From a virus (Duplodnaviria; Heunggongvirae; Uroviricota; Caudoviricetes): a stretch of 53,150 nt of DNA. This document shows, in pieces, positions 18,206 through 51,100 of this stretch. A model generated the notes under the pieces. The model saw only the letters and a program-made list of their open reading frames with translations, was not told where the DNA came from and searched no databases. Where the stretch lies: IMG/VR virus record IMGVR_UViG_2537562195_000010; one strand, written 5' to 3'. The translations under genes and the position numbers were made by a program. The number at the start of each line of letters is the position of its first letter. Position 1 is the stretch's first letter.

Positions 18206-18634
18206 ATGTATTGCCGTGCTGTACCGGTTCTTGTTTTGATATTAGCCAGTCTGACAACTGGCTGCACAAAAGATGTATCGACAAATAATTATGATGCTTC
18301 TCTGTATCACTCAGATAAATTAATAAAGTCACAAAATTTGAGCTCATCGGAACGTAGCCCTGATGCCAGTGAAGAAATCCGGCAGTATGCCATTCAGGTC
18401 AGGAAAGCCATAGAAGAACAGTTAAAGGATGCGAGTAAGTATTCAGGAAAAGAGTGTTCACTGAGAATGTATATGGCCCCGAATGGTCTTCTGCTACAGG
18501 TTAAAAGAGAAAGCGGTGATCCCGATTTATGTCGTGAAGCGATGAATGCAGTAAAGAATGCTGATATACCATCACCACCGTCTTCAGGAGTATATAAAGC
18601 ATTTAGAAATGGCGTGCTGGATTTTAAACTCTGA
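18206..18634 (+). CDS. Lipoprotein with TolA C-terminal (domain III)-like domain
   Basis: 142 aa; signal peptide with lipobox-like 'LTTGC'; C-terminal 'YAIQVRKAIEEQLKDASKYSGKECSLRMYMAPNGLLLQVKRESGDPDLCREAMNAVKNADIPSPPSSGVYKAFRNGVLDFKL' closely parallels the E. coli TolA C-terminus as I recall it (...GDPALC...KIPKPPSQAVYEVFKNAPLDFKP); AT-rich moron. Confidence 0.7.
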   Translation: MYCRAVPVLVLILASLTTGCTKDVSTNNYDASLYHSDKLIKSQNLSSSERSPDASEEIRQYAIQVRKAIEEQLKDASKYSGKECSLRMYMAPNGLLLQVKRESGDPDLCREAMNAVKNADIPSPPSSGVYKAFRNGVLDFKL

Positions 18635-18700: not shown

Positions 18701-18950
18701 GTGTTAAATCCCTCACAATTCAGTAAGTTGACAGTTGCCTGTCAGACTGAGCATTTGTTAAAAAAATTTCGCATGGTGAATCCCCCTGTGCGGAGGGGCG
18801 ACTGGTGAACGGTATGATCTCTTTGATGATCGTAAGCGAGAATACGCGGGTTTGGTGTCACCGGGCTGAACTCACCGGGAGGCACCCGGCACCATGCTCA
18901 TGGTGATACAGAAATGCGGCTTCAGCCCCTCTCCGGAGGGGCTTTCTTAT
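18701..18950 (+). repeat. Structured repeat unit A (family of five; possible sRNA gene or promoter-terminator cassette)
   Basis: Contains the conserved blocks 'GTTAAATCCCTCACA', 'TTGTTAAAAAAA', hairpin 'GGTGAATCCCCCTGTGCGGAGGGGC', hairpin 'CACCGGGAGGCACCCGGCACC' and terminator 'GCCCCTC-TCCG-GAGGGGC-TTTCTT' (18925-18948). Confidence 0.7.
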
Positions 18951-19110
18951 GGACAAAAAAAGCCCGCGCTGGGAGACGCGGGCGGCAAGGAATAAACAAT
19001 AAAACGTGAAGTAATACTTCAACTGGCGAATAATACCCGACAGTAATCACTCTGCGCAATAGCGTGGCCTTTTTCGAATTGCGGGCTGTAGTCTCCCTTC
19101 TGCTGGGTGT

Positions 19111-19330: not shown

Positions 19331-20056
19331 ATGGATGTTGCCTGCTCTGTGGTCCTGATTCGCTATCCGATAGATATTTTTCTTGAAAAAGAAAAAGTTT
19401 CACTCGATGCCGGAAGTGTTATGCTTGTTGCCAGAAATATAAGAGGGCTTTTCTGTGCTTATGCCGACAGAGTGAAAATGGCAGATATAAGTAACAGCGT
19501 CGTCAATCAGTATCTGGAAAGGGAGTGTGAACTGACGGAGTATACACCGACAAAAATTCCTCTTTATTTGATGTCTGATATTTACAATACGGAACTGGCG
19601 GAGGCTTTAATAACCCAGCATAGTGAATCCAGTGATACTTTGAAGGATTTCTCTGTTATAACCGCATTTTCATGTATCTCCTTATTTGCAACAGACAGAC
19701 GTCTGCCATTATTTTTGTCCGGTGCTGTAAATAATATCAGCTGTAAAGTAAGGGCTATAATTCAGACCGACATATCGGCAGGCTGGATGCTTGGTGTGAT
19801 TGCATTACAATTGCATATGAGCGAAAGCTTGTTGAAGCGAAAACTTAAGGATGAAGGTTATAGCTTTAGTCGGTTGTTGCTGGAGGAGCGAATGCGTGTT
19901 GCTGTTAATCTTGTATGTTTCCAGCGAGAGTGTGGACAAGCGATAGCGGAAAAATGTGGTTACTCAAGTAAGTCCTACTTCATTTCTGTATTTCACCAGT
20001 ATTATGGTGCACCACCTGAGAGCTATGCATATTTGCAGAAAGCAGACGTTATCTGA
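19331..20056 (+). CDS. AraC/XylS-family transcriptional regulator (prophage-encoded)
   Basis: 241 aa; C-terminal double-HTH region '...LHMSESLLKRKLKDEGYSFSRLLLEERMRVAVNLV...IAEKCGYSSKSYFISVFHQYYGAPP' typical of AraC-type regulators; AT-rich island. Confidence 0.75.
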   Translation: MDVACSVVLIRYPIDIFLEKEKVSLDAGSVMLVARNIRGLFCAYADRVKMADISNSVVNQYLERECELTEYTPTKIPLYLMSDIYNTELAEALITQHSESSDTLKDFSVITAFSCISLFATDRRLPLFLSGAVNNISCKVRAIIQTDISAGWMLGVIALQLHMSESLLKRKLKDEGYSFSRLLLEERMRVAVNLVCFQRECGQAIAEKCGYSSKSYFISVFHQYYGAPPESYAYLQKADVI

Positions 20057-20671: not shown

Positions 20672-20907
20672 ATGTTAAATGACTCACAATTCGGTTGATG
20701 GGCTATTGTCTGATCGATGGAAGTCTTGTAAAAACGAGCCAGCATAGTGAATCCCCCTGTGCGGAGGGGCGTCTGACATGGTCTCCATAGCGATGGTCAC
20801 AATACGCAGATTCAGTAGTCAGGCTGAATCTACCGGGAGGCACCCGGCACTATGCTGCTTATGGTGTATACATAGCGATCGGCCCCTCTCCGGAGGGGCT
20901 TTTTTTG
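20672..20907 (+). repeat. Structured repeat unit B
   Basis: Same conserved blocks as unit A ('GTTAAATGACTCACA', 'AGTGAATCCCCCTGTGCGGAGGGGC', 'TACCGGGAGGCACCCGGCAC', terminator 'GGCCCCTCTCCGGAGGGGCTTTTTTT'). Confidence 0.7.
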
Positions 20908-20929
20908 TGCGGGAAAAGGCTGTGTTGTT

Positions 20930-21175
20930 AAGTGTTAAATTCCTCACAGTTCAGATGGTTGATGCTTGCCTGTCTGAGGGGGAGTTGTTAAAAAAGTTCT
21001 GCATGGTGAATCCCCCTGTGCGGAGGGGCGACTGGTATGATTTGCATCTTTTCTGTTGTAGGCAATGCAAACGCGGGTTCAGGGACACCAGACTGGACTC
21101 ACCGGGAGGCACCCGGCACCATGTTCATGATGATACAGATACGCAGTGTCAGCCCCTCTCCTGAGGGGCTTTTTT
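20930..21175 (+). repeat. Structured repeat unit C
   Basis: Same conserved blocks; terminator 'AGCCCCTCTCCTGAGGGGCTTTTTT' at 21151-21175; variable central segment. Confidence 0.7.
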
Positions 21176-21202
21176 ATGCAGGAAAAACGCTGTGTTGTGA
21201 AA

Positions 21203-21436
21203 TGTTAAATTCCTCACAGTTCAGATGGTTGATGCTTGCCTGTCTTACGGGGAGTTGTTAAAAAAGTTCTGCATGGTGAATCCCCCTGAGCGGAGGGGCA
21301 TATCAGCGCAGGTGTTTCTACTCTATCCTTTCTGTGCGGGTTCAGGTGCTGATACTGAACTCACCGGGAGGCACCCGGCATCATGCATATGGTTAACAGA
21401 CAAGTAGCGAAGCCCCTCTCCGGAGGGGCTTTTTTA
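21203..21436 (+). repeat. Structured repeat unit D
   Basis: Same conserved blocks; terminator at 21411-21436. Confidence 0.7.
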
Positions 21437-21462
21437 TGCAGGGAAAAGGCTGTGTTGTGAAA

Positions 21463-21690
21463 TGTTAAATTCCTCACAATTCATGAGGTTGATGATTGTC
21501 TGATTGATGAGGAGTTTGTTAAAAAAAACGGGCATGGTGAATCCCCCTGTGCGGAGGGGTGATATCGTATCATTTCCTGTGTGGCCGACTGATATCACGG
21601 ACATTTGTTCACCGGGAGGCACCCGGCACCATGCAGTATACAGAGATTAGGCATACATCCAGGCTCCTCATCGCAGGAGCCTTTTTACAT
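21463..21690 (+). repeat. Structured repeat unit E
   Basis: Same conserved 5' blocks; central segment forms its own inverted repeat ('GTGATATCG...CGACTGATATCAC'); different terminator hairpin 'GGCTCCT-CATCGC-AGGAGCC-TTTTTA'. Confidence 0.65.
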
Positions 21691-21918
21691 GTAAAAAAAA
21701 CCGCTCCTGGGAAGAGCGGTTGGCAAGGAAGCAAGGAATAAATAACAAAACGTGAAGTAATTTATTCAGCACCCTAATAATACCTTAGAGTAATCACCTT
21801 GCGCAACTGTAAGGGCGTATTTCTTTTTTGCGGGCTGTTTTTCTGTGTGACTTTTGTGTTTCCGGAGGTCAGCCCGTGCCTTCTCTGACTCAGAACATTA
21901 TCCCGGCCGGGAGGATTC

Positions 21919-26082: not shown

Positions 26083-26616
26083 ATGAACACCAAAATCAAA
26101 TACGGCCTGTCGGCTGCCGTTCTGGCGCTGATTGCCGCAGGGGCGCCTGCGCCTGATATTCTCGACCAGTTTCTGGATGAAAAAGAAGGTAACCACACCA
26201 CGGCATACCGTGATGGTGCGGGTATCTGGACCATTTGTCGTGGTGCCACCAGGGTGGATGGCAAACCTGTCGTCCCGGGCATGAAGTTGTCGAAGAAAAA
26301 ATGCGACCAGGTTAACGCCATTGAGCGTGATAAGGCGCTGGCATGGGTGGAGAAAAACATCAAAGTGCCACTGACTGAACCCCAGAAAGCGGGTATTGCG
26401 TCATTCTGTCCTTACAACATTGGCCCCGGTAAGTGTTTCAGCTCAACGTTTTACCGGAAACTGAACGCCGGAGACCGTAAAGGCGCATGTGCTGAAATTC
26501 GTCGCTGGATATATGACGGTGGTCAGGACTGCCGTATTCGTTCAAACAACTGTTACGGTCAGGTATCCCGTCGTGACCAGGAGAGCGCGCTGGCGTGCTG
26601 GGGAATCGACAGATAA
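26083..26616 (+). CDS. SAR endolysin (phage lysozyme, R21-like)
   Basis: 177 aa; G/A-rich weakly hydrophobic N-terminal SAR segment 'GLSAAVLALIAAGAPAP'; lysozyme catalytic region 'DEKEGNHTTAYRDGAGIWTICRGAT'; pairs with the pinholin. Confidence 0.85.
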   Translation: MNTKIKYGLSAAVLALIAAGAPAPDILDQFLDEKEGNHTTAYRDGAGIWTICRGATRVDGKPVVPGMKLSKKKCDQVNAIERDKALAWVEKNIKVPLTEPQKAGIASFCPYNIGPGKCFSSTFYRKLNAGDRKGACAEIRRWIYDGGQDCRIRSNNCYGQVSRRDQESALACWGIDR

Positions 26617-27822: not shown

Positions 27823-28281
27823 ATGCTTTCCGCGTTTACCGTTATTCTGCTGGTGGTCTGTGGTGCGCTTAGTCTGGGGCTGAATCATTACCGCGATAAC
27901 GCCATCACCTACAAAGCGCAGCGCGATAAAAAAGCCAGAGAGCTGGAGCTGGCAAACGCAACCATTACTGATATGCAGGTGCGCCAGCGCGATGTTGCTG
28001 CGCTCGATGCAAAATACTCGAGGGAATTAGCCGATGCGAGAGCTGAAAATGAAACTCTGCGTGCTGATGTTGCCGCTGGTCGTAAGCGCCTGCGGATCAA
28101 CGCCACCTGCTCCGGTACCGTGCGTGAAGCCACCGGCACCTCCGGCGTGGGCAATGATGCCGCCGTCGAGCTCTCTCCGGTTGCTGGACGAAACGTTCTC
28201 GGTATCAGAGACGGAATCATCAGCGACCAGGCTGCATTGAGAATGCTTCAGGAATATATCCGCACTCAGTGTATTAACTAG
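27823..28281 (+). CDS. Rz i-spanin
   Basis: 152 aa from '[36 protein letters not shown]...'; N-terminal TM anchor plus coiled-coil periplasmic domain; alternative GTG start at 27808. Confidence 0.8.
28034..28240 (+). CDS. Rz1 o-spanin (lipoprotein embedded in the +1 frame of Rz)
   Basis: '[39 protein letters not shown]...': lipobox VSAC and Pro-rich mature part; fully nested in Rz. Confidence 0.7.
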
Positions 28282-28304
28282 TATTTTTGTTATCCGGAGA
28301 ATGC

Positions 28305-28529
28305 ATGAAGAAATTACTGGTAACCGTAAAGCCTTTTCAGGGAACAATTCCGTTCCGTATTTTGCAGCGTGGTCGTGTTCTTGTTGAAGGTTCGTTCAGT
28401 GGTAAATGTACGCAATTACACTCCCGGACCTTTCAGGTGAATGCCACGAATGAAGAGCTAACCGTTGAGTGTACGATGAATGCCGCTAAATGCCGTATGG
28501 TATCGGCTGCATTACAGCCAGTGTGTTGA
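28305..28529 (+). CDS. Hypothetical protein
   Basis: 74 aa from 'MKKLLVTVKPFQG...'; GGAGA RBS at 6 nt. Confidence 0.4.
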   Translation: MKKLLVTVKPFQGTIPFRILQRGRVLVEGSFSGKCTQLHSRTFQVNATNEELTVECTMNAAKCRMVSAALQPVC

Positions 28530-28867
28530 GCGACCTTATTATCCATGCGCGGTATTGTCGCCGTATTCCCGTATTAACAGAGACCGCAGCCCGACAGGGA
28601 GACTCCTCTGCGCGAGTGTGCGGGGATAATCAAAAACGATACACACCGGGGTTTACCGCGTTAACGGAGCGCGGCGTTGTCCCCTCATGGTCGCTGGTCC
28701 GGTGCGATGGTGGAAGAAACCGGACGATGTGTTACCTCGCAAGACCTGTTATGTCATGTGTCTGATTTGTGATTTAAGTCGGATAATTGTCGTTGCCATT
28801 AAGCAGAGGATTGATGGCCGACAGGGTGGCATTGTTAGAATAAGACTTATTCTTATCTGTGCCGGGA

Positions 28868-29200
28868 ATGAAAATGAAAAGAAATCTTCCGTTAATTATT
28901 TTGTTGTCTTCTCTGGTTATGGGCTGTACGCAACATAAAACAGATATGCCCCGACAGTTGGTTAAGGCATTACCACAATATCCGGCCTATGCAGCGGCAA
29001 ATTATATAAAGGGACGGGTTGATGTGAAGTTTGATATTGGTGCTGATGGTACTGTCACCCGAATTGAGTTTATCCGTTCAGAGCCGCACCATCTGTTTGA
29101 TGAGCAGGTTGTAAAGGCGATGGCAAAATGGCGATTTGAGAAGGACAGGCCGCGTAAAGGCGTGAAGAAAACGTTTATCTTTAGTCCTTCTGCACCCTGA
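28868..29200 (+). CDS. Lipoprotein with TonB C-terminal domain
   Basis: 'MKMKRNLPLIILLSSLVMGC' lipoprotein signal (lipobox LVMGC) followed by 'LPQYPAYAAANYIKGRVDVKFDIGADGTVTRIEFIRSEPHHLFDEQVVKAMAKWRFE', the TonB_C signature (YP..A......G.V.V.F.I..DG.V....I..S.....FD..A..A...WRF); start could also be GTG 28859 or ATG 28874. Confidence 0.7.
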   Translation: MKMKRNLPLIILLSSLVMGCTQHKTDMPRQLVKALPQYPAYAAANYIKGRVDVKFDIGADGTVTRIEFIRSEPHHLFDEQVVKAMAKWRFEKDRPRKGVKKTFIFSPSAP

Positions 29201-29331
29201 TTATTTCATCAGAAATTAATTATCACTCTGTTGTTATTCTGTACATCCCGGCTGGGTAAGTCTTGTTCCGCCGGGTATGAAGATGAAATATTGTTGGAGG
29301 ACAGTGGGTACCTGCTCCTGTAACCGAACGT

Positions 29332-29532
29332 TCATTTCTCGTTATTTGTCATGCTGGCCGGACGCAGATGCGTTGCATCTGTTGCCAGCCTTCTCCTGCA
29401 GGCTTCAATAACCCACGCTGAAAAGTTACCGGACCCTTTATGCTCAAGGGCGATGTTGATCTGTTCAATCATGTGATTGGGGAAACGGATATTGCGGGTT
29501 GTGGTTCTGCGGGTCCGGTTTTTCGATGACAT
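29332..29532 (-). CDS. Ribbon-helix-helix-like small DNA-binding protein
   Basis: 66 aa from 'MSSKNRTRRTTTRNIRFPNHMIEQINIALEHKGSGNFSAWVIEACRRRL'; beta-strand plus two helices pattern; AAGGAAA RBS on the minus strand. Confidence 0.45.
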   Translation of the reverse strand: MSSKNRTRRTTTRNIRFPNHMIEQINIALEHKGSGNFSAWVIEACRRRLATDATHLRPASMTNNEK

Positions 29533-29573
29533 ATTTATTTCCTTTACTGATTGCCATATGACGGGGATTTTAC

Positions 29574-48134: not shown

Positions 48135-51100
48135 GTGGGTAAAGGGGGCGGCAAGGGGCACACACCGCGTGAGGCGAAGGACAATCTCAAATCCACGCAG
48201 ATGATGAGCGTGATTGATGCCATCGGTGAGGGACCGGTGGAAGGCCCGGTGAAGGGACTGCAGAGTATTCTGGTGAACAAAACCCCGCTGACGGACACGG
48301 ACGGTAATCCCGTGATACACGGTGTGACCGCCGTCTGGCGTGCCGGGGAGCAGGAGCAGACACCGCCGGAAGGCTTTGAGTCCTCCGGGGCGGAAACCGC
48401 ACTGGGTGTGGAGGTGACGAAGGCAAAGCCGGTGACGCGCACCATCACGTCAGCGAACATTGACCGTCTGCGGGTCACCTTCGGGGTGCAGTCACTGGTG
48501 GAGACCAGCTCAAAGGGTGACCGTAATCCCTCTTCTGTCCGGCTGCTGATTCAGCTTGAGCGTAACGGTAACTGGGGGACGGAGAAGGATGTCACCATTA
48601 ACGGCAAGACCACCTCGCAGTACCTGACGTCGGTGATTCTGAATAATCTCCCTGAGCGCCCCTTTAACATCCGGATGGTCAGGGTGACGGCGGACAGTAC
48701 CACGGACCAGCTGCAGAACAGAACGCTGTGGTCGTCATACACCGAAATCATCGATGTGAAACAGTGCTACCCGAACACGGCCATTGTGGGGCTGCAGGTG
48801 GATGCGGAGCAGTTCGGTGGCCAGCAGATGGTGGTGAACTACCATATCCGCGGCCGCATCATTTAGGTGCCGTCAAACTATGACCCGGAAAAACGCACCT
48901 ACAGCGGTATCTGGGACGGGAGTCTGAAACCGGCATACAGCAATAACCCGGCCTGGTGCCTGTGGGACATGCTGACCCACCCGCGCTACGGCATGGGAAA
49001 ACGCCTGGGGGCGGCGGATGTGGACAAGTGGGCACTGTATGCCATCGGGCAGTACTGTGACCAGACGGTCCCGGATGGTTTCGGGGGCACAGAGCCGCGG
49101 ATGACTTTCAATGCGTACCTGTCACAGCAGCGTAAGGTCTGGGATGTCCTGGGGGATTTCTGCTCGGCGATGCGCTGTATGCCGGTATGGAACGGCCAGA
49201 CGCTGACGTTCGTTCAGGACCGTCCGTCGGATGTGGTGTGGCCGTACACCAACAGCGATGTGGTGGTGGATGATAACGGCGTGGGGTTCCGCTACAGCTT
49301 CAGTGCCCTGAAGGACCGGCACACGGCGGTGGAGGTGAATTACACCGACCCGCAGAACGGCTGGCAGACTTCCACGGAACTGGTGGAAGACCCGGACGCC
49401 ATCCTGCGCTACGGGCGCAACCTGCTGAAGATGGACGCGTTCGGCTGTACCAGCCGCGGTCAGGCTCACCGTGCCGGACTGTGGGTGATAAAGACCGAAC
49501 TGCTGGAAACGCAGACGGTGGATTTCACGCTCGGGTCTCAGGGGCTGCGGCACACGCCCGGTGACATCATTGAAATCTGTGATAACGACTATGCCGGGAC
49601 CCTGACCGGCGGACGCATCCTGTCCATCGATGCCGCCAGCCGCACACTGACGCTGGACCGTGAGGTGACACTGCCGGAGACAGGTACATCGACGGTGAAC
49701 CTGATTAACGGCAGCGGTAAGCCGGTGCGCGTGGACATCACTGCACACCCCGCCCCTGACCGGATACAGGTCAGCATTCTGCCTGATGGCGTGGCGACAT
49801 ACGGTGTGTGGGGACTCTCCCTGCCGTCACTGCGTCGTCGCCTGTTCCGCTGTGTTTCCATCCGGGAAAACACGGACGGCACCTTTGCCATCACGGCGGT
49901 GCAGCATGTGCCGGAAAAAGAAGCCATTGTGGATAACGGGGCCCGCTTTGAGCCGATGTCCGGCTCACTGAACAGCGTCATCCCGCCGGCAGTGCAGCAC
50001 CTCACGGTGGAGGTGAGTGCCTCAGACGGCCAGTATCTGGCGCTGGCGAAATGGGACACGCCGCGGGTGGTGAAGGGCGTGCGCTTCAGTCTGCGCCTGA
50101 CCAGTGGCAGTGGTGAGAACAGTCGCCTGGTGACCAGCGCCATCACGGCGGACACGGAGTACCGTTTCAGTGGCCTGCCGCTCGGGGAATACACCCTGAC
50201 GGTCAGGGCGATAAACAGCTACGGCCAGCGGGGCGAACCTGCCACCACCACATTCCGGATTAATGCACCGGCGGCACCGGCCAGCATTGAACTGACGCCG
50301 GGCTATTTTCAGATAACGGCAGTACCGGTGCTGGCAGTGTATGACCCGACGGTACAGTATGAATTCTGGTTCTCAGAAAAACGCATCACGGACACGGCAC
50401 AGGTGGAAACCTCTGCCCGTTATCTGGGTACCGGCAGCCAGTGGAGCGTCTCCGGCCCGCACATTAAGCCGGGGAAGGATTTCTGGTTTTATGTGCGCAG
50501 CGTCAACCTGGTGGGGAAATCTGCGTTTGTGGAGGCCAGCGGGCAGGCCAGCAATGATGGTGAAGGGTATCTGGAAATTTTCCGTGGGCTGATAGATGAG
50601 GCGCTGCTGGGGAAGGCACTGAAAGAGCGTATTGATGCGTCAGCCCTGCGTACTGAGGTCACGCAACTGGAAGAAGACATCCGCCAGCGACTGGAGACGG
50701 ATGTTGCGGAAGTGACCCGAAAAATCGGGGAGGCGGAAAACAGCCTCACGCAGCTGGTTGCGAAAAAGAATGAGGACCAGACGCTGGCCATCGCGCAGGT
50801 GAGTCAGCAGGTGGACCGGGTGAGCAGTGAAATCACACAGACCGTCAGCCAGAGCACGGAGGAAAACGCCAGGCAGATAGCGCAGGTCCGCCAGTACGTG
50901 GATGACAAAGGGAGTGAAATCACCTCGACCACGGATAAAAAGCTGGAAGACCAGAGCGCCACCATACAGCAGATACAGCGGGTGCAGACAGACACAAATA
51001 ACGACCTGGCTGCACTGTACATGCTGAAGGTGCAGAAAACAAAAAACGGCATTCCGTATGTTGCCGGTATTGGTGCGGGGATTGAGGATGCTGATGGCCA

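Follow-up and report, generated by a model that had tools for sequence, protein, structure and literature searches.

A prophage lipoprotein with a TonB-type C-terminal domain as a possible competitor of TonB at the outer membrane

TonB-dependent transporters are the gates for iron, vitamin B12, many phages, colicins and microcins, and they are the entry route of siderophore-conjugated antibiotics. Why should a temperate phage carry, on a lipid anchor, the domain with which TonB docks on them? The question is raised by a small gene in a 53,150-nucleotide stretch of Caudoviricetes DNA (IMG/VR record IMGVR_UViG_2537562195_000010; the whole stretch is called the window here), a lambdoid, Stx-phage-like prophage without stx. 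A first-pass annotation, made from the sequence alone, had described the product as a lipoprotein of about 110 residues with a TonB_C signature, encoded after the lysis cassette, and had suggested that it forms a paired Ton/Tol decoy with a TolA-III-like lipoprotein encoded 10 kb upstream. Here we show that the gene encodes a 108-residue lipoprotein (hereafter the TonB-C lipoprotein) with a complete TonB-type C-terminal domain, place it in a family of short TonB_C lipoproteins, most of them preceded by Fur boxes, and tentatively propose that it competes with TonB. A natural, lipid-anchored TonB docking domain would offer a simple, general means of disturbing all Ton routes at once from inside the outer membrane.

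A lipid-anchored, stand-alone TonB-type domain

The open reading frame on the + strand extends from GTG 28859 to a stop codon at 29198–29200. Translation in RefSeq (WP_000828070.1) starts at ATG 28874, downstream of in-frame starts at GTG 28859 and ATG 28868, giving a coding sequence of 28874–29200 (+) and a protein of 108 residues (MKRNL...) in Escherichia coli strain 2012C-4502, the genome of which is identical to the window over 28600–29450. Positions 28874–28927 (+), read directly, encode a signal peptide and lipobox, MKRNLPLIILLSSLVMG-C18; the N terminus has the form M-KR-N-LPLIILLSSLVMG-C18, followed after the cysteine by TQHK. The lipobox is LVMGC, with the Cys18 codon at 28925–28927 and Thr at the +2 position. 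Lipoprotein signals of the PROSITE PS51257 type follow the pattern [LIVMFWSTAG](2)-[LIVMFYSTAGCQ]-[AGS]-C, with the cysteine at 15–35, a basic n-region and a hydrophobic h-region; matched by eye, MKRNLPLIILLSSLVMGC satisfies this pattern, and a lipoprotein signal is predicted.

Conservation agrees with this reading. Cys18 is invariant in alignments of 13 and of 36 family members, and the +2 residue is T, S, A, V or G in all 36 and Asp in none. In E. coli, Asp at +2 is the signal for Lol avoidance. As the +2 residue is Thr and not Asp, we infer that the mature protein is held by its lipid in the inner leaflet of the outer membrane. The mature part comprises a 7-residue tether after Cys18 and a single, complete TonB-type C-terminal domain. 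Between subtype A (the window type) and subtype B (the phage 21-type allele), the ratio of non-synonymous to synonymous substitution rates (dN/dS) is 0.12; the gene is therefore under purifying selection and the protein is kept by it.

The TonB-type domain spans residues 26–105 (28949–29188, +). It matches Pfam TonB_C (PF03544) at E = 5.3e-15 and 56.1 bits against a cutoff of 24.6 bits, and TIGR01352 (tonB_Cterm) at 56.5 bits against a cutoff of 27.1 bits. By BLASTP it aligns without gaps to residues 153–230 of E. coli TonB, with 40% identity (E = 3e-21), and a sequence search of the Protein Data Bank retrieved solved TonB C-terminal domains at E of about 1e-16. An AlphaFold2 model built from a 36-sequence alignment has a mean predicted local distance difference test score (pLDDT) of 86 overall and at least 90 across the domain (a single-sequence model, with a pLDDT of 56, was discarded). 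Foldseek places this model on free TonB (1u07_A; E = 2e-8, root mean square deviation 1.2 Å) and on receptor-bound TonB from its complexes with BtuB (2gsk_B) and FhuA (2grx_C), both at a deviation of 1.1 Å, with target TM-scores of 0.88–0.91. The predicted structure has the α/β fold of the TonB C-terminal domain, including its three-stranded sheet and free edge strand. Residues kept relative to TonB comprise the YP motif (P-Q-Y-P-A), F180, G186, F202, W213, P220 and F230, and the C-terminal edge strand, VKKTFIFS, is the counterpart of β3 of TonB (IVVNILFK). The first-pass reading of the product as a TonB_C lipoprotein of this size thus holds on every count, in the profile search and structure prediction that it had named as checks as well as in the conserved lipobox.

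What the protein lacks is equally clear. Equivalog profiles for TonB itself (NCBIfam PRK10819) score 49–73 bits against cutoffs of 265–448, with only the C-terminal ~80 positions aligned. The N-terminal anchor through which TonB couples to ExbB and ExbD and the proline-rich spacer are absent, with a cleavable lipoprotein signal in their place. The TonB-C lipoprotein carries a TonB_C domain but is not a TonB.

Distribution, family and Fur boxes

The gene is already annotated, and hence not new. RefSeq gives the product name of WP_000828070.1 as 'TonB family protein'; PHROG 1267, matched at E = 2e-42, is labelled 'Rz-like spanin' in the functional category lysis; and the 71% identical, subtype-B copy in classical phage 21, beside bor, is annotated 'TonB C-terminal domain protein'. 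Subtype A is carried by Stx1a-converting phages and by phages JLK-2012 and Lys8385Vzw. Among 5,426 complete E. coli genomes, 414 contain the subtype-A region and 1,221 the subtype-B gene, and about 30% have one of the two; ATCC 25922 is a subtype-B carrier in which the gene adjoins iss. Rz lies at most 1.6 kb upstream in 66 of 74 E. coli loci of the gene. A scan of IMG/VR gave only near-identical E. coli copies and is informative for synteny, not diversity. Several subtype-B variants (P0012, P0013, P0018, P0019, P0021 and P0010) are diverged or extended past about residue 90, with a frameshift-like change at the C-terminal strand, which may be real decay in some prophages or an error of metagenome or read-archive assembly.

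Beyond E. coli, an exhaustive, profile-free search found many short (about 110–130 residues), single-domain relatives with lipoboxes, and when searched with a profile the family proved to be restricted to Enterobacterales (Escherichia, Klebsiella, Raoultella, Citrobacter, Serratia, Erwinia and Gibbsiella). The short TonB_C lipoproteins form one clade in a neighbour-joining tree, well apart from the C-terminal domain of E. coli TonB; the phage gene is therefore no recent truncation of tonB. We rejected a phage-made truncation both on this ground and because chromosomal copies occur in Serratia, Raoultella, Klebsiella, Erwinia and Pantoea.

Genomes were scanned for relatives with a 7-sequence alignment, and the contexts of the hits were read from called genes (tblastn with hallmark proteins detected one phage context). 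Prophage copies always lie at the lysis–terminase junction, in at least four prophage lineages: in Escherichia (E. coli subtypes A and B), in a Klebsiella phage, in a Serratia prophage (L093; lysozyme, TonB_C, terS, portal) and at locus L179 (DUF2514 spanin, TonB_C, HNH, terminase, portal). Chromosomal or island copies, which are unrelated to phages, are found between ycgN and dsbB in Serratia, near lacZ and lacI in Raoultella, between ahpC and a GST gene in one case, and in an integrase-associated island in Klebsiella aerogenes. In its prophage setting, the gene is probably a lysogenic-conversion ('moron') gene.

The regions upstream of the family members carry a second signal. We scanned the 120–200 nucleotides before each member against the Fur consensus TGATAATnATTATCA, calling a site canonical at 12 or more matches of 14. 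Of 18 non-redundant family loci, 11 (L179/L180, L084/L185, L087, L088, L089, L091/L187, L093, L095, L096, L097 and L181) have a canonical Fur box 27–66 nucleotides ahead of the start codon, three of them with a perfect match, against a rate of 0.2% in control windows of the same loci. These boxes precede chromosomal copies and two prophage copies (L179 and L093). At L179, a promoter-like TTGAGT-18-TATTAT overlaps the Fur box, and a terminator-like hairpin follows about 400 nucleotides downstream of the gene, past another small open reading frame. Most members outside E. coli have such a box over the promoter, which connects the family with iron and Ton physiology and not with lysis or generic envelope structure.

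At the corresponding position, 21–37 nucleotides upstream of the start codon, alignment of the upstream regions and scoring against the Fur consensus brought out a perfect 8-1-8 palindrome in the window, AGAATAAGaCTTATTCT (28837–28853). It is conserved in subtype-A loci and is one of two perfect 8-1-8 palindromes in the 53-kb window, in which no canonical Fur site (12 or more of 14) occurs anywhere; in phage 21, the left half alone is retained at the Fur-box position. Copies in E. coli phages lie in late-operon orientation. From these upstream sequences, the family as a whole is predicted to be iron-regulated and the E. coli phage copies to have lost that control.

Other features of the window's intergenic region can be set beside these. 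No intrinsic terminator was found flanking the TonB-C gene. A strong antisense σ70-like match, TTCACA-16-TATAAT (11/12), lies within its coding sequence at 29028–29001 (−); promoter-like sites in the region are no more frequent than in shuffled sequence. Upstream, a non-coding stretch of about 170 nucleotides (28550–28720, +) is conserved with phage 21 (L002, 3690–3860) between flanks that differ, with bor in phage 21 and a small open reading frame, a PHROG 2571 fragment, in the window. Rfam gave no match in 28282–29573, this stretch included.

Competition with TonB and its rivals

The identity and build of the protein are close to certain, but what could it do? The best explanation, which we favour tentatively and hold to have somewhat less than an even chance of being right, is that it is an outer-membrane-tethered competitor of TonB at TonB boxes. 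Held by its short tether at the periplasmic face of the outer membrane, the domain would bind the periplasm-exposed TonB-box segments of transporters by β-strand addition to its own edge strand, and incoming group-B colicins might be bound through their TonB boxes as well. Having no coupling to ExbB–ExbD, it would exert no pulling force on a bound TonB box; because boxes would thus be occupied without force transmission, it would compete with TonB and damp or gate TonB-dependent import. A lysogen would gain tolerance to TonB-dependent phages (of the T1 and phi80 types) and bacteriocins, at a cost in siderophore and vitamin B12 uptake. Such a decoy role is plausible because the fold is the one that TonB uses on BtuB and FhuA and because a short tether would keep it at the face of the outer membrane.

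There are precedents. Irreversible adsorption of T1 requires TonB. In phage T5, Llp, which sits in the inner leaflet of the outer membrane as a lipoprotein, closes FhuA from its periplasmic face. According to the title of Howard et al. 2001, transport through FecA and FhuA is inhibited when a TonB domain is produced in the periplasm in vivo.

Which entrants such a decoy would face can be judged from the receptor of the phage itself. The C terminus of the tail-tip protein J in the window is of the lambda-J type (48% identity to lambda), with no phi80, N15 or T1 record among the matches listed for it, and the receptor of phage 21, which carries subtype B, is LamB. For these reasons we rejected a Cor- or Llp-style blocking of the phage's own receptor. 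As that receptor is not Ton-dependent, any exclusion would be aimed at other phages and toxins.

Several points weigh against competition at TonB boxes. Two TonB residues implicated in contacts with the TonB box and the cork, Q160 and R166, are replaced in the short TonB_C lipoproteins by Leu and by an invariant Tyr, respectively, and for this reason the ligand may not be a canonical TonB box. The palindrome upstream of the window's gene scores 9/14 in its core and 13/19 against the Fur box, which is the background level, and Fur control of this copy was accordingly rejected as unsupported; no σ70-like promoter was found on the + strand before the gene. Production of the window copy may be limited to the time of late gene expression, when the benefit of exclusion is less obvious. 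For the chromosomal members the difficulty is of another kind: under the predicted Fur control they would be made when TonB-dependent uptake is most needed, a timing that would fit a helper or tuner of uptake equally well or better, and a Fur-induced inhibitor of iron uptake is paradoxical. A search with PADLOC models gave no match at E up to 0.01.

The rival that survives best, although we consider it unlikely, is that the protein assists or tunes TonB-dependent iron uptake, as an iron-starvation-induced lipoprotein that docks on or organizes transporters, holding TonB boxes ready or shielding idle receptors without blocking loaded ones. A prophage copy would then improve or modulate iron acquisition, not exclude competitors. 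The canonical Fur boxes before most family members, including the core-chromosomal copies of Serratia (ycgN–dsbB) and Raoultella, speak for it, as do the TonB-like fold and invariant residues of the family that are unlike those of TonB (Tyr at the R166 position, and Asn43). However, there is no known way for a TonB domain without a link to ExbBD to energize transport, the Fur box has been lost in the E. coli phage copies, and no transporter or siderophore genes were seen beside the chromosomal copies among the loci examined.

An improbable alternative is a generic periplasmic binding module that bridges the outer membrane and either peptidoglycan or abundant proteins of that membrane, and so alters envelope robustness or vesiculation and not Ton-dependent import. 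Association with peptidoglycan, OmpA and Lpp has been reported for TonB C-terminal domains; structural roles are known for some TonB-like proteins (SjdR), and other envelope morons lie nearby (bor/iss, ompC-like porins and the TolA-III lipoprotein). Against this, a family under Fur control suggests a role specific to iron and the Ton system, and a 7-residue tether would keep the domain at the membrane face, away from the peptidoglycan layer.

A coordinated two-part decoy, in which the TonB-C and TolA-III lipoproteins block the Ton and Tol import routes together, we judge quite improbable. Its ingredients are present: the prophage does encode a lipoprotein with TolA domain III, at 18206–18634 (+; lipobox LTTGC; Pfam TolA C-terminal domain at 3.9e-23; PHROG 5772, function unknown), and both lipoproteins carry the C-terminal domain of an energy transducer. 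Where the TolA-like gene is of the window-type allele (at least 94% identity), the TonB-C gene follows in 6 of 10 IMG/VR loci that cover the post-spanin region, and the two genes lie about 9–10 kb apart in at least eight complete genomes. The wider distribution tells otherwise. None of the 15 deposited phage genomes with the TonB-C gene has the TolA-like gene, and the sole phage with the TolA-like gene is without TonB-C; the commoner TolA-like allele (66–70%) is followed by TonB-C in 0 of 37 IMG/VR loci; and among the 32 TonB-C loci whose upstream sequence extends to 7 kb or more, five contain the TolA-like gene, a further one being added through contig identity. The IMG/VR counts come from shorter arrangements and shared contig names, as the 10-kb flank just misses the TolA-like gene in the window arrangement. 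Among the complete E. coli genomes, a TolA-like match occurs in 895 of 5,426, mostly as another allele (80–90% DNA identity) that lies about 1.5 kb upstream of a lysis cassette in IMG/VR loci, and the whole 11-kb arrangement from TolA to TonB-C in 12. The two genes occupy different moron slots about 10 kb apart, and one shared prophage lineage explains their co-occurrence. Their pattern is that of two independent morons linked within that lineage, in which the pairing is real but not obligate; of the first-pass Ton/Tol pair, the joint presence of both domains stands and the functional unit is not supported.

A lysis function, spanin-like or spanin-accessory, is very improbable and largely refuted: it is implied by the PHROG 1267 label and by the place of the gene, which in several phages directly follows the spanin genes and has the late-operon orientation, but the window has a complete Rz/Rz1 pair (Rz i-spanin, 27823–28281, +, Pfam Phage_lysis at 1.2e-39, with the Rz1 o-spanin embedded in it at 28034–28240, Pfam Rz1 at 9.2e-20), the protein is globular and ends in FIFSPSAP with neither the C-terminal transmembrane segment of a u-spanin nor a proline-rich, Rz1-like region, close relatives are chromosomal, far from lysis genes and preceded by Fur boxes, and the same slot in lambda-like phages also holds bor/iss, a known non-lysis moron, so that we regard the 'Rz-like spanin' label as wrong.

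Competition with TonB can be extended to the family as a whole. We suggest, as a doubtful but consequential conjecture, that the short TonB_C lipoproteins are a class of outer-membrane-tethered 'anti-TonB' gatekeepers: Fur-controlled host proteins that in many Enterobacterales set the traffic through TonB-dependent transporters by occupying their TonB boxes, and that lambdoid phages have repeatedly captured, put behind their lysis genes and rewired in regulation, making the lysogen broadly tolerant of TonB-dependent phages, colicins and microcins. If true, about 30% of sequenced E. coli, among them lysogens of phage 21 and many strains with Stx1, would have their iron uptake and their sensitivity to phages and bacteriocins modified by an unstudied gene. 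The domain call in itself is routine; prevalence (phage 21, Stx1a phages and close to a third of complete E. coli genomes, often beside iss/bor), the Fur signal and direct testability make the gene of interest. Relatives in Klebsiella, Serratia and Raoultella appear to be part of the Fur regulon. In the literature searched, we found no functional study of the TonB-C lipoprotein. The combination of a lipid-anchored TonB docking domain that stands alone, a link to Fur in its family and repeated capture by temperate phages at one slot appears to be undescribed as a functional entity.

Prophage surroundings and known systems

The gene order of the prophage around the TonB-C gene is as follows. Q, a DNA methylase gene and two tRNA genes precede the gene of the TolA-domain-III lipoprotein, which occupies the slot held by stx in Stx phages. 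Then come five copies of the small RNA STnc100 and an AraC-type regulator gene, a SASA esterase gene, the holin gene, the lysozyme gene (26083–26616) and an antirepressor gene; Rz with its embedded Rz1, a small open reading frame, the TonB-C gene and a convergent DUF3950 (YlcI/YnfO) gene; and, from 29574, HNH, terS, terL and the head and tail genes, with an ompC-like porin gene among the tail genes, and J. The location after the lysis cassette, as first proposed, is confirmed, with Rz/Rz1 directly upstream and HNH and terminase genes downstream.

The STnc100 copies lie on the + strand at 18742–18954, 20713–20908, 20972–21181, 21243–21439 and 21503–21692, score 120–172 bits against an Rfam gathering score of 47, and flank the TolA-like gene and the gene of the AraC-family regulator, with four of them in a near-tandem array. 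The regulator gene (19331–20056, +; Pfam HTH_18 and HTH_AraC) sits within the late region, between the TolA-like gene and the array. The porin gene (43854–45017, +), between gpM and gpL, is full-length and OmpC-like (Pfam Porin_1 at 5e-143; PHROG 410), and related porin genes lie beside the TolA-like gene at two other loci (L063 and L065) and, in the prophage of ATCC 25922, near Q. With porin genes at these sites, the late regions of these prophages therefore gather several envelope-modifying genes.

The tail-tip gene J contains an in-frame TAG at 48864–48866 (+; context RGRII*VPSNYDP), at a position occupied by Gln in lambda J. No pseudogene note accompanies gpJ in the closest genomes, which share 99.8% identity over 501 nucleotides. 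The prophage may be tail-defective, or the TAG may be a sequence error.

The TonB-C lipoprotein probably belongs with the prophage lipoprotein morons that act on outer-membrane receptor systems, and it resembles several known proteins in part. Its homologue is E. coli TonB (residues about 153–239), with which it shares 40% identity, the fold and the edge strand. TonB, however, has its own membrane anchor to ExbB/ExbD and a proline-rich spacer, whereas the phage protein has a lipoprotein signal and a 7-residue tether, so that TonB hangs from the inner membrane and the TonB-C lipoprotein would hang from the outer.

Among small phage lipoproteins of the inner leaflet of the outer membrane, Llp of T5 and Cor of phi80, N15 and HK022 inactivate FhuA from the periplasmic side, and the TonB-C lipoprotein would likewise act on a TonB-dependent transporter from that face. 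The likeness is not one of homology (a Pfam scan of the TonB-C lipoprotein at E up to 1 gives TonB_C and TonB_2 alone), nor of target: Llp and Cor block one particular receptor, that of the encoding phage, whereas exclusion by the TonB-C lipoprotein would face other phages through the shared TonB box.

Bor/Iss of lambda offers a parallel in position, as another outer-membrane lipoprotein moron between the spanin genes and cos/terminase, and it adjoins the TonB-C gene in phage 21 and ATCC 25922. It differs in being unrelated in sequence and domain, in the orientation of bor on the opposite strand, and in its tie to serum resistance rather than to Ton. The TolA-domain-III lipoprotein (PHROG 5772) shares the design, in which a lipobox is joined to the C-terminal domain of an inner-membrane transducer in a prophage moron, and differs in domain family, in moron slot (the stx position) and in a largely non-overlapping distribution.

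Closest to the proposed action are the artificial, soluble periplasmic TonB fragments of Howard et al. 2001, in which the C-terminal region of TonB is present in the periplasm uncoupled from ExbBD, as it would be in the TonB-C lipoprotein, and for which the title of that study reports inhibited FecA and FhuA transport. Those fragments are engineered, soluble and derived from TonB; the TonB-C lipoprotein is natural, lipid-anchored, diverged and under purifying selection.

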